Positions 8,524-13,257 of a stretch of DNA of 17,907 nucleotides are shown here, piece after piece. Below the pieces are notes generated by a model. It saw only the letters and a list, made by a program, of their open reading frames with translations, was not told the DNA's origin and did no database searches. Location of the stretch: IMG/VR virus record IMGVR_UViG_2675903650_000016; one strand, written 5' to 3'. A program made the translations under genes and the position numbers. Origin of the DNA: a virus (Duplodnaviria; Heunggongvirae; Uroviricota; Caudoviricetes). Numbering within the stretch: the stretch's first letter is position 1; each line of letters begins with the position of its first letter.

Positions 8524-8850
8524 TCATAACACCGTCGGACAACGCAAATCGTAAATCAGCACGGAAACAGAAAACGGCAACTCCCCCTGCACGAGGTCTT
8601 CCCGCTCCGCAAGATCCGGATTCCGGTACAGCATCCCGGTCAGTCGCATGGCAGCCCCCTTCATCCGGGTTAATGCCTCACCCGGGATCAGTTCACCGTC
8701 CTCACGAATCACCTTATCCCGGCTGCCCTGAATGTAGGCCAGCAGCACGGCGGTAGCCTGACGAACCTTGTCCATCAGCATCTCATCATCCGCGTCATGG
8801 TCAACACGCAGATGTGCCTTGATCTCCTCCAGTGTCAGTAATGCCGTCAT
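8524..8850 (-). CDS. head-tail connector protein (HK97 gp6-like)
   Basis: 108 aa. N-terminus MTALLTLEEIKAHLRVDHDADDEMLMDKVRQATAVLLAYI is typical of gp6-like connectors as I recall them. Start overlaps the portal stop (ATGA). Confidence 0.65.
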   Translation of the reverse strand: MTALLTLEEIKAHLRVDHDADDEMLMDKVRQATAVLLAYIQGSRDKVIREDGELIPGEALTRMKGAAMRLTGMLYRNPDLAEREDLVQGELPFSVSVLIYDLRCPTVL

Positions 8851-11319: not shown

Positions 11320-13257
11320 TCAGCCGCCGGACGCAGTTCCGTAGTTCACACCGGTGATCACCGCCACTGCCGCGGTACGGCGACGACGCCAGTTGATCCA
11401 GCGCTCCGCACGGATGGCCACGCTGCCTGTCTGGAACATGGAAACCAGCTCCACCGGGGACGGCGTGGTACTGTCGCCGGTCGGCTCAGACTGCATTTCC
11501 AGTGATGCCTCGCGGGACATATCCACTGCCACGCCGCCGTCATCCGCCAGATAAATATCCGGGGCATTCACCAGCACCAGCTGGTCACCCACGTACTGGG
11601 AGACAATCACCGGCAGCCCCTGGAAGGAGCCACCCAGCAGGGTCATGTCCGGGTATTCCTTCTGACCCAGCGCATTTTTACGCATGGACAGTGCCAGGGC
11701 ATTGGTGCTGGACATCAGCCAGATCGCACCGGTGGGCTGCAGGTTTGCTGCCACAAACTGTCCAAACGCAGCCTCTGCATCCGCATCCGGGTTACCGGTT
11801 GATGCCGTGCCCTTCACATCATGGGTGATGGACGCCGGGGAGACATCTGCCACTGCGGCTTTTTTCGGGTCCACAAAGTCTGTATCCAGACGCGCCACCA
11901 CCGCTTCCGCCAGCGCATTACGGACCAGTGCATCAGCAGCCGGACTGGAAAAACGGATCAATTCTTCCGTCAGTACCGCAATGGCCGACACTTTCGCATG
12001 ACTGAAGGTGATGGATTCAAAATCAAACTTCGTCAGGGGTTTTGCCTTACCCTCACCCACCCAGCCGGCAGCACCGCCGGACACCTGGGCGTGCACACGG
12101 ATATTGAACGGCACCTGACGAAGTGCAGGGATCCCGCCCTGACCAAATCGCCCGATAATGGTCTGCGGACGCAGGTAATCAATAAAGTCCTGTGCGTATT
12201 CCTGATATTCAGACAGGCTGCCTGCCCACTGCGGATCCGTGGTGGTCCCCGCGCCCACTGCCGATTTCAGGACATGATGCAGACGACTGTCATCCGGATA
12301 CTGACGACGGGCCACTTCCAGGGCTTCAGATCGGACGCCTTTAGCCGCAGCCAGCGATTTGGCAAAGCGGGCGAAGCCAATCCCCTTATCCAGTTTCTGC
12401 TCCACACGGATCACCGGCGCAGAAGCCACCGCGGCCACATTCCCGTTACCGGCCTGTTTCACCGGCTGCGCCGTGGCGGCCTTACCGGCTTCCAGTTCAC
12501 GCAGGCGCTTCAGGTGCGCATCCACCTGACGGATTTCCGCTGCGGTGTTGTCGTAATGCTCTTCCTCCTCCACATCCAGCGTGCGCCCTTCCTCTGCGGC
12601 TTTGGTCATGACCTCCTCAAGGGAGGCTGCCAGCGCTGCACGCTTGTTTTCAAAACTTTTAATCTGTTCGCCAATATTCATTATGGTCTTTTCCTTATGA
12701 AAAACGGTTGTTGACTGTGCCGCAGCGCCGGCAGAAGATGCGATTTTCACCACCGGTTTCCGGTTGCCGGACGCGGCAGAAAACGGGCGGTCGTAAGATT
12801 TAATGGTCCGGATGGTGCATTCCGCATTCGCGGGCACGGTGACGGCAGACACCTCCATCAGTTCCCAGCGCATAAAATGCAGTCCGCCTCCGTCCAGAAA
12901 GGTGTATTCATGGGGACGGAAGCCCACGGACAGCCCCCTGACCAGCCCGGTCTTAATGGCCGCCCAGACCTCATCCAGCCGGGCAGCCAGTTGCGACGGC
13001 ATATCCGGTACGGGCTTCACCAGTGTTGCCGTGATTTCCAGCCCTTCGCTGACCCGGCGCACCGTACACTGCCCCACCGGGCGGGAATGGTCATGCTGCC
13101 AGAGAAACGGGATCGCACTGCCAAACTCCGCGCCCTCCGGCTCCAGGATGTCACCATCCCGATCCGGAGAAGGCGTTGACGCAATCCCGGTGATCACCCG
13201 TTCATCCTCACTGAAGGATTTCACCGTCAGCAGGGAACAGGCCCGTTTAAGAGTCAC
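11320..13257 (-). CDS. fused prohead protease - scaffold-like linker - major capsid protein (HK97 fold)
   Basis: 645 aa. The N-terminal ~170 aa match the HK97 prohead protease signature as recalled (TGIASTPSPDRDGDILEPEGAEF...PFLWQHDHSRPVG...GLSVGF...EVSAVTVPANA). The middle is a charged coiled-coil-like segment. The C-terminal ~380 aa resemble HK97-type capsid protein (GQFVAANLQPTGAIWLMS...QGLPVIVSQ...VDMSREASLEMQ). GTG start at 13257 is preceded by AGGAGG. Confidence 0.8.
   Translation of the reverse strand: MTLKRACSLLTVKSFSEDERVITGIASTPSPDRDGDILEPEGAEFGSAIPFLWQHDHSRPVGQCTVRRVSEGLEITATLVKPVPDMPSQLAARLDEVWAAIKTGLVRGLSVGFRPHEYTFLDGGGLHFMRWELMEVSAVTVPANAECTIRTIKSYDRPFSAASGNRKPVVKIASSAGAAAQSTTVFHKEKTIMNIGEQIKSFENKRAALAASLEEVMTKAAEEGRTLDVEEEEHYDNTAAEIRQVDAHLKRLRELEAGKAATAQPVKQAGNGNVAAVASAPVIRVEQKLDKGIGFARFAKSLAAAKGVRSEALEVARRQYPDDSRLHHVLKSAVGAGTTTDPQWAGSLSEYQEYAQDFIDYLRPQTIIGRFGQGGIPALRQVPFNIRVHAQVSGGAAGWVGEGKAKPLTKFDFESITFSHAKVSAIAVLTEELIRFSSPAADALVRNALAEAVVARLDTDFVDPKKAAVADVSPASITHDVKGTASTGNPDADAEAAFGQFVAANLQPTGAIWLMSSTNALALSMRKNALGQKEYPDMTLLGGSFQGLPVIVSQYVGDQLVLVNAPDIYLADDGGVAVDMSREASLEMQSEPTGDSTTPSPVELVSMFQTGSVAIRAERWINWRRRRTAAVAVITGVNYGTASGG

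Follow-up and report, generated by a model that had tools for sequence, protein, structure and literature searches.

The prohead protease and the major capsid protein of this phage are encoded by a single ORF of 645 aa that precedes the portal gene. The window (the whole stretch of DNA analysed, 17,907 nucleotides) contains an ordinary head-assembly cassette, the HK97-like siphovirus module of the very common long-tailed Stx1/Stx2c-type lambdoid E. coli prophages (Sawaravirus and relatives). We propose, with a probability of roughly 0.6, that this cassette operates through a merged protease and capsid gene with dual initiation, co-assembly of the products and self-processing. On comparative grounds we also lean slightly towards a nested two-product gene, in which initiation at the conserved Met193 would supply capsid protein alone, with full-length chains making up a minority of subunits that carry the protease. 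A nested two-product protease-capsid fusion is, as far as we found, not described in the literature.

Protease, helical segment and capsid in one reading frame

The fusion gene follows TerL (13321-14982) directly and stands ahead of the portal ORF. A sequence-only reading of this DNA had placed the gene upstream of the portal and had assigned protease and capsid domains, with a coiled-coil linker, to one 645 aa frame. The gene order, the ORF, the Pfam and TIGR01554 matches and the predicted helices bear this out. A hidden stop or frameshift splitting the ORF was looked for and none was found in the window sequence. The 645-aa frame recurs in 94 phage records, and it is maintained in thousands of homologues, among which the architecture of two domains in a single uninterrupted ORF is conserved. 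The protein is matched over its full length by phrog_617 (E 8.5e-261). Coordinates are collected in Table 1.

The profile searches suggested by the sequence-only reading matched both domains above curated cutoffs. Pfam Peptidase_S78 (PF04586) matches aa 48-152 with 35.5 bits (cutoff 21), and the PFLWQHD...PVG signature that had been pointed out earlier is present at aa 50-62. TIGR01543 scores 46.4 bits on the fusion protein against a cutoff of 59, so the protease match is below the 'equivalog' level. The protease domain is homologous to HK97 gp4 (MEROPS S78), with 29% identity (E 3e-9) and the same Ser and His motifs. Ser110 (GLSVGF) is aligned with Ser114 of gp4 (GMSVGF), and His55 (WQHD) is one residue off the position aligned with His65; we take His65 and Ser114 to be the catalytic residues of gp4. 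The histidine is found in 130 and the serine in 129 of 130 distant homologue clusters. This near invariance indicates selection on the protease part.

The AF2 model of the whole fusion has a mean pLDDT of 41.6, and its usable parts are the protease core (pLDDT 70-80) and the helices. Foldseek returned no matches to the fusion model at E<0.001. The best matches of the protease core are herpesvirus assemblins, whose fold the modelled core may resemble (weak matches, E about 0.012, TM about 0.25-0.3). By analogy with HK97, maturation would be expected to proceed by proteolysis that removes the N-terminal part.

The predicted helices of the scaffold-like segment span aa 195-222 and 229-262 (pLDDT about 70). 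The capsid part is matched by Pfam Phage_capsid (PF05065; aa 386-635, 51.7 bits, cutoff 24.2) and by TIGR01554 (aa 204-584, 77.2 bits, cutoff 27.5). The HK97-family profile matches the capsid part including an N-terminal helical segment. BLASTP found no significant similarity between the capsid part and HK97 gp5, a capsid protein with a delta domain. A solved capsid, 9d9w, gives a weak sequence match (E 0.0019). In the AF2 model the capsid part has a pLDDT of 20-30, from a shallow alignment, and the fold is not confirmed structurally.

A family of prohead protease/major capsid protein fusion proteins is described by NCBIfam NF045541 (scaf_prot_MCP2). The window fusion scores 54.2 bits against its cutoff of 525, and the match is partial (aa 48-287 only). 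Judged from this score, the window fusion has the same architecture as the NF045541 proteins, yet it is outside that family.

Table 1. Positions in the window of the fusion gene, its parts and the neighbouring features
Feature	Position	Strand	Basis
Terminator-like hairpin with T-run, between TerL and fusion gene	13279..13296	-	Sequence
AGGAGG Shine-Dalgarno (SD), 7 nt upstream of GTG start	13263..13268	-	Anti-SD duplex -10.3 kcal/mol
Fusion start codon GTG	13255-13257	-	Sequence
Protease / scaffold-like (delta) / HK97-family major capsid fusion gene	11320..13257	-	645-aa ORF; 69 kDa precursor
Protease domain, aa 1-156	12790..13257	-	Pfam, HK97 gp4 homology
Predicted catalytic His55	13093-13095	-	Alignment, conservation
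Predicted catalytic Ser110	12928-12930	-	Alignment, conservation
Variable gap-rich linker, aa 157-192	12682..12789	-	Alignments; AF2 pLDDT below 30, predicted disordered
TAAGGA, SD-like motif 10 nt upstream of Met193 ATG	12692..12697	-	-6.2 kcal/mol
ATG of Met193, candidate internal start of a 453-aa (48 kDa) delta+capsid protein	12679..12681	-	Conservation
Helical scaffold-like / delta-like segment, aa 193-265	12463..12681	-	AF2 helices, TIGR01554 from aa 204
HK97-family capsid shell domain, aa ~285-645	11323..12405	-	PF05065, TIGR01554
GC-rich stem-loop just past capsid stop codon	11284..11305	-	-19.2 kcal/mol for 47-nt stretch
Conserved 73-aa gene between capsid and portal	11054..11275	-	phrog_829, E 1.3e-38
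Portal gene proper, HK97-type	9743..11108	-	Pfam Phage_portal, TIGR01537
G6 run, one G above the G5 of separate-gene phages	9758..9763	-	Comparison with relatives
Gene X, 299 aa from own ATG (9744-9746)	8847..9746	-	Sequence analysis

A candidate internal start and the dose of protease

The linker between the protease and the helical segment is variable, and the first residue after it is conserved. Met193 is present in 110 of 130 distant fusion clusters (background Met frequency 2.4%). An SD-like motif is located 5-11 nt 5' of this codon in almost all lineages despite the varying linker residues. In four divergent lineages (L019, L024, L030, L031) and in Pseudomonas phage PAJU2 the motif is a strong GGAGG (PAJU2 site: CAGGAGGG), and in the four lineages the SD strength of the site is in the top 0-0.4% of in-frame positions. 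The same residue is aligned with residue 1 of the separate capsid proteins of Snodgrassella, Burkholderia FUBS1 and Moraxella Mcat6.

The internal signal in the long ORF is strong in several of these lineages and weak in the window, where the TAAGGA ahead of Met193 is matched in SD strength by about 20% of in-frame positions (20th percentile, not significant in the window-only test). The argument for an internal start is based on comparative conservation. Taken together, the conservation of Met193, the SD-like motif and the match to the unfused capsid starts suggest that the capsid protein is probably also translated on its own.

The ORF with its domains, the conservation of the catalytic residues and of the internal start signal, and the gene order with its breadth are direct observations; the steps that we infer are the dual translation, the co-assembly and the cleavage events with their positions. 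The genes for the maturation protease and the major capsid protein are merged in one frame. Initiation at the GTG would yield a 69-kDa protease-linker-delta-capsid precursor, and initiation also at the Met193 ATG would yield a 48-kDa delta-capsid protein alone. The two products would co-assemble via their identical capsid part. With the protease covalently joined to a subset of the subunits, it would thereby be brought into the procapsid interior. The Ser/His protease would then cut off itself, the linker and the delta-like helices after assembly, and a mature shell protein some 360-380 aa long would be left.

In HK97 the C-terminal tail of gp4 targets the protease to the procapsid. Past the aligned protease domain, gp4 continues for roughly 60 C-terminal residues that the window gene lacks, and the covalent link would replace such a separate targeting tail. 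The proposed arrangement follows the logic of the herpesvirus UL26/UL26.5 and lambda C/Nu3 pairs, in which a long protease product is accompanied by a shorter, more abundant in-frame product, and the shared C-terminus carries the protease into the procapsid. Those pairs share a scaffold protein, whereas the products of the window gene would share the capsid protein with its delta-like segment.

It had been claimed earlier that the fusion fixes the protease-to-capsid stoichiometry at 1:1. Under such an arrangement only the 645-aa protein would be made, each subunit would carry its own protease and the N-terminal parts would be cleaved after assembly. The uninterrupted frame and the strong SD at the GTG are consistent with this, as is the weakness of the internal SD in the window. 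By a rough estimate, a capsid built entirely of fusion protein could physically exist, with about 13 MDa of internal protein for 415 subunits, and the conserved Met193 could be a retained relic or have a structural role. In Gifsy-2 the fusion is likewise the only known capsid gene. A protease-scaffold-capsid fusion is also reported to be the sole capsid gene in small actinobacteriophages (PMC7302621). However, Met193 and its upstream motif are conserved far above expectation in an otherwise variable linker, and the capsid gene of the unfused relatives begins at the same codon. We therefore regard the 1:1 claim as doubtful and an obligate fusion as rather unlikely. If the nested reading is true, the ratio of protease to capsid would instead depend on how strong the two ribosome-binding sites are relative to each other. 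The conserved internal start offers a simple and testable model for protease dose in fused protease-capsid genes.

Distribution and related head modules

The sequence-only reading had implied that the arrangement is rare. On the contrary, the architecture and gene order are widespread, and a protease-capsid fusion ahead of the portal is already known from the annotation of public phage genomes. More than 90 deposited Stx-converting phages carry this gene at 93-99% identity. At E<=1e-30 the family falls into 1192 clusters (50% identity), of which the best 150 representatives are nearly all full-length fusions of 630-680 aa. In GenBank the gene is often called 'major head protein/prohead protease' or 'major head protein/prohead proteinase'; 'capsid and scaffold' is used as well, and PAJU2 ORF003 is entered as 'prohead protease fused capsid protein'. 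An annotation term in use for other protease-capsid fusions is 'major capsid and protease fusion protein'. Experimental work on the fusion gene in Stx phages was not found in a literature search. As found, the result matters little: the gene was read correctly, but many Shiga-toxin phage genomes already have it annotated, and roughly one in four complete E. coli genomes contains it (1256 of 5426).

The closest relatives are BP-4795, YYZ-2008, 1717 and Stx2a_WGPS2 (Sawaravirus), whose fusions share 95-99% protein identity with that of the window. The fusion of Salmonella FSL SP-016 is 77% identical and that of PAJU2 48%. In the BP-4795 group, FSL SP-016 and PAJU2 the fusion has the same length and the order is TerS, TerL, fusion, small ORF, portal, X, adaptor. 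A comparison of gene order with related prophages had been recommended. Among 29 loci compared from Gamma-, Beta- and Alphaproteobacteria, 27 have TerL, protease-capsid, small ORF and portal in this order, as do the phages PAJU2, FUBS1 and Mcat6.

This order is retained where the two proteins are encoded separately. Burkholderia vB_FUBS1, Moraxella Mcat6 and Snodgrassella alvi prophages carry TerL, protease, capsid, small ORF and portal, with two genes instead of one; their proteases are 40-46% and their capsid proteins 32-38% identical to the window. The junction between protease and capsid is a 23-nt spacer in Snodgrassella and an ATGA overlap in Mcat6. FUBS1 is without gene X.

The neighbours of the fusion gene are of HK97 type (HNH, TerS, TerL, a gp6-like adaptor, head closure and a gp10-like gene). 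In HK97 itself, however, portal, protease and capsid are separate genes in that order, whereas in the window protease and capsid form one frame before the portal.

Comparable fusions are present in other sequence families. The protease of Gifsy-2 is ClpP-like. The fusions of Gifsy-2, the actinobacteriophages and the Rhodobacter RcC phages share the concept with the window gene but belong to sequence families different from it. A protease-scaffold-capsid fusion is carried by small-genome actinobacteriophages of clusters EE, AN, AX, CW and others (PMC7302621) and by the RcC phages (bioRxiv 10.1101/2021.08.04.455094). For Gifsy-2, a title cited in the literature speaks of a 'tripartite capsid gene'.

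The capsid-portal gap, the portal and gene X

The 211-bp gap before the portal had been considered to lack a convincing gene. This was wrong, as a conserved 73-aa gene (phrog_829) lies there, with a 55-nt overlap onto the portal start. Related phages have this gene annotated, and the protein is 44-57% identical across Enterobacterales. Differences among homologues fall mostly in third codon positions (0.37/0.31/0.57 by position). A small ORF is found at the same place in the window and in all 27 loci with a readable capsid-portal gap, with a clear sequence homologue detected only in most Enterobacterales loci. As a small ORF occurs at this place in the whole lineage, it is a candidate head-assembly factor.

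The portal ORF, previously treated as one gene, is a composite. It encodes 753 aa (8847-11108, minus strand), of which residues 455-753 correspond to another gene in comparison with relatives. The portal proper is matched by Pfam Phage_portal (PF04860; aa 54-382, E 2.2e-80) and by TIGR01537 (354 bits, cutoff 112). Close relatives have a 454-aa portal and a separate gene of 299-407 aa, here called X, with start and stop overlapping as ATGA (9743-9746 in the window). An extra G in the window (G6 rather than G5) puts portal and X in one frame. It is this allele that distinguishes the window from many of the Stx phages above; the fusion gene itself is essentially the same. The comparison with distant relatives shows that the two-gene form is ancestral.

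Among IMG/VR contigs G6 is found in 37 and G5 in 26, and the state tracks the flanking haplotype. As G6 occurs in 37 independent viral contigs and is linked to haplotype, with both alleles common, a random sequencing error was rejected. A programmed frameshift at the G-run was also rejected, since outside the E. coli group the run is not preserved (AGAGGA stands there in most relatives) and the genes are separate in 24 of 26 loci, with stop and start overlapping or abutting.

The portal-X join is due to a single-base change in a homopolymer and the module is present in many copies in E. coli (median 4 places per genome), some surely defective, but a decaying prophage in which the join and the fusion are inactivating mutations or sequencing errors is very improbable, given that the one-ORF fusion is kept over hundreds of 50%-identity clusters with invariant catalytic residues, that it occurs in deposited Stx-converting phages and carries a structural-protein annotation in PAJU2, that the terminase, adaptor, tail and lysis genes of the window are intact, and that G6 follows haplotype.

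Gene X begins with a long N-terminal helix, followed by a variable number of approximately 27-aa repeats made up of a helix plus PxPxDGxD. Its C-terminus is a beta domain with a CBM5/12-like module, for which the CBM_5_12 score is below threshold. The AF2 model of X is of low confidence (pLDDT 59.5), and its Foldseek matches are local, to chitin-binding domains.

Annotation pipelines disagree on the portal gene, and PGAP labels the two-gene portal/X form 'frameshifted'.

A porin gene is located between the tail genes M and L of the window. Truncation of the prophage beside the host ompC was considered and was rejected, gpL being found after the porin.

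The protease-capsid fusion gene

The 645-aa fusion gene starts with a GTG that has AGGAGG 7 nt upstream, and its frame contains no internal stop. Pfam Peptidase_S78 (aa 48-152) and Phage_capsid (aa 386-635) both match this ORF above threshold, TIGR01554 (HK97 major capsid) matches aa 204-584, and phrog_617 'major head protein' spans the entire protein (E 8.5e-261). The N-terminal 192 residues are 29% identical to HK97 gp4 (E 3e-9). Ser110 (GLSVGF) is aligned with gp4 Ser114, and His55 (WQHD) is one residue off the position aligned with gp4 His65; we take these two gp4 residues to be the catalytic residues of the HK97 protease. 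His55 is kept in 130 of 130 full-length homologues, each from a separate 50%-identity cluster, and Ser110 in 129 of them. The AlphaFold model, built on a shallow alignment, is poor overall, and the capsid part is not among its usable regions; the protease core (aa 5-140) is confident, aa 142-193 form a disordered linker, and aa 195-262 fold into two long helices. The top structural matches of the predicted core, all weak, are herpesvirus assemblins. Given the profile matches, the gp4 homology, the retention of His55 and Ser110 and the predicted core and helices, the sequence-only reading of a tripartite protease-scaffold-capsid gene is correct at the level of sequence profiles.

Two motifs in the otherwise variable linker, (L/R)-A-A-(S/T)-G (aa 159-163) and P-G-A-(S/T)-G (aa 176-180), are kept among distant homologues. 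Herpesvirus assemblin cleaves at Ala-Ser sites, to which these motifs are loosely similar, and one may speculate that they are self-cleavage sites.

The earlier observation of all three parts in one gene before the portal was right, though what it describes is widespread, known and annotated already. Over the 4.4-kb region, 94 deposited phage genomes show 93-97% identity, most of them from Stx1a-, Stx2a- and Stx2c-converting phages. The region also occurs in 1256 of 5426 complete E. coli genomes, where the median is four places per genome. Depositors have named the gene 'major head protein/prohead proteinase', 'capsid and scaffold' or 'phage prohead protease'. ORF003 of Pseudomonas phage PAJU2, which is 48% identical to the window protein, has the product name 'structural protein' and the note 'prohead protease fused capsid protein'. 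An exhaustive profile search gave 1192 representative clusters at E<=1e-30, and the best 150 of these are nearly all fusions of 630-680 aa. Protease-scaffold-capsid fusions have been reported from several actinobacteriophage clusters and Rhodobacter phages (PMC7302621; bioRxiv 10.1101/2021.08.04.455094). The NCBIfam model 'prohead protease/major capsid protein fusion protein' describes another family, which the window protein matches only partially.

The protease-to-capsid ratio and a candidate internal start

Snodgrassella prophages, Burkholderia FUBS1 and Moraxella Mcat6 encode protease and capsid in two genes, unlike the window, where they are fused. The capsid protein of all three unfused relatives starts at the residue aligned with Met193, the candidate internal start of the capsid part, as do several stand-alone capsid representatives from the profile search clusters. 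Met occupies position 193 in 110 of 130 distant fused clusters (overall Met frequency 2.4%), where a gap-rich and otherwise little-conserved linker ends. Of 26 non-redundant sequences, namely 25 loci and the window, 25 have ATG (or GTG/TTG) as this codon. Upstream of it, at a distance of 5-11 nt, stands AAAGGAAA, TAAGGA, CAGGAGGG or GGGAGGG, despite differing linker residues; PAJU2 has CAGGAGGG. Anti-SD pairing at this site is in the top 0-0.4% of in-frame positions in four divergent lineages. The window itself has only TAAGGA (-6.2 kcal/mol, 20th percentile), and the signal comes from comparison among relatives rather than from the local sequence.

These comparisons are most economically read, with a probability that we put at roughly 0.55-0.6, as showing that the start signal of the ancestral capsid gene still functions. 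The fusion gene would then yield two products, a capsid precursor of 48 kDa and a protease-tagged precursor of 69 kDa. The same two-product logic is followed by herpesvirus UL26/UL26.5 and lambda C/Nu3. An obligate 1:1 ratio of protease to capsid, fixed by the fusion as had been proposed, is the less likely alternative and probably wrong: the unfused starts, the conserved Met, the conserved SD-like motif and its strength in four lineages all argue against it. Internal initiation of the capsid protein is the single idea here worth testing.

The capsid-portal gap and the portal ORF

The 211 bp that separate the fusion gene from the portal ORF were previously thought to hold no convincing gene. 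They hold a 73-aa ORF that overlaps the portal start by 55 nt, matches phrog_829 (E 1.3e-38) and carries an annotation both in related phages and from PGAP. Homologues with 44-57% identity were detected in 15 of 17 Enterobacterales loci with full flank, and they differ mostly at third codon positions. By these criteria the 73-aa ORF is considered a real, conserved gene. A small ORF, in most cases with a basic tail at its end, is present at this position in the window and in the 27 fetched loci with a readable gap.

The portal gene is likewise not the simple gene first described. The portal of close relatives has 454 aa, and its stop overlaps, as ATGA, the start codon of a distinct gene (gene X) that is 299-407 aa long. 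An extra G in the G-run of the window joins the two in one 753-aa frame. In distant relatives, which do not keep the G-run, portal and X are separate at 24 of 26 loci, so programmed frameshifting at this run is unlikely and the two-gene state is, on this comparison, ancestral. Both alleles are nonetheless common: among IMG/VR contigs the fused allele (G6) occurs in 37 and the two-gene allele (G5) in 26, and the state tracks the flanking haplotype. PGAP calls the two-gene form a 'frameshifted' pseudogene despite its ancestral status.

Gene X has a conserved long N-terminal helix, then about 1-6 helix-plus-PxPxDGxD repeats of ~27 aa, and a conserved C-terminal beta domain. This domain is predicted to end in a CBM5/12-like (chitin-binding-type) module from sub-threshold Pfam hits and local Foldseek matches of a low-confidence model only. 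In HK97 the protease and capsid genes occupy the place where the window has gene X. Databases often name gene X 'phage portal protein'.

Gene order and layout of the module

All head and tail genes discussed lie on the minus strand. The set is a complete-looking HK97-like siphovirus morphogenesis module.

Table. Features of the window in order of transcription
Feature	Position (nt)	Strand	Place
Rz (lysis)	17465-17800		
TonB-domain ORF	16573-16914	-	
HNH endonuclease	15834-16199	-	first in the module
Small terminase (TerS)	14979-15542	-	after HNH
Large terminase (TerL)	13321-14982	-	after TerS
Hairpin and T-run	13279-13296	-	
645-aa fusion ORF	11320-13257	-	after TerL
Two linker motifs	about 12718-12783	-	
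Met193 codon (ATG)	12679-12681	-	
GC-rich stem-loop	11284-11305	-	
73-aa ORF	11054-11275	-	between fusion gene and portal ORF
753-aa ORF with portal domain	8847-11108	-	after 73-aa ORF
G-run	9758-9763	-	
Gene X	8847-9746	-	
gp6-like head-tail adaptor, head closure, gp10-like, tail completion proteins		-	past portal ORF
Major tail protein, tail chaperones, tape measure protein		-	next
gpM	2279-2620	-	next
Porin gene	909-2072	-	after gpM
gpL	1-741	-	after porin gene

The order in HK97 is portal, protease, capsid, whereas in the window the protease-capsid gene is ahead of the portal. The placement upstream of the portal, already proposed from the sequence, recurs elsewhere: TerL, protease-capsid, small ORF and portal follow the same order in 27 of the 29 loci that were fetched from species other than that of the window, among them Enterobacterales, Marinobacter, Hydrocarboniphaga, Snodgrassella and several Alphaproteobacteria. 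Of the two others, one is a contig ending within the capsid gene and one is apparently rearranged. PAJU2, Burkholderia vB_FUBS1 and Moraxella Mcat6 are annotated with this order, too. Shared this widely, it is a stable trait of an old lineage and not a local rearrangement.

The stretch that separates TerL from the fusion gene contains a terminator-like hairpin with a T-run, and directly behind the capsid stop codon there is a GC-rich stem-loop. The HK97 protease-capsid pair has putative terminators annotated at the equivalent places on either side. In a Parasphingorhabdus MAG (locus L029, 7001-8709) a capsid-like match (query aa 309-636) is upstream of a protease-like one (query aa 3-156). All other loci have the opposite order; a rearrangement or two cassettes side by side may explain the exception.

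The 387-aa porin gene (Pfam Porin_1, E 1e-140) between gpM and gpL has a G+C of ~0.44 vs ~0.58 in its surroundings and looks like a moron within the tail operon. PGAP names its homologue 'porin OmpC'. A 113-aa ORF with a TonB C-terminal domain (E 1.4e-14), in a stretch of lower G+C between the lysis and HNH/terminase genes, may be another moron.
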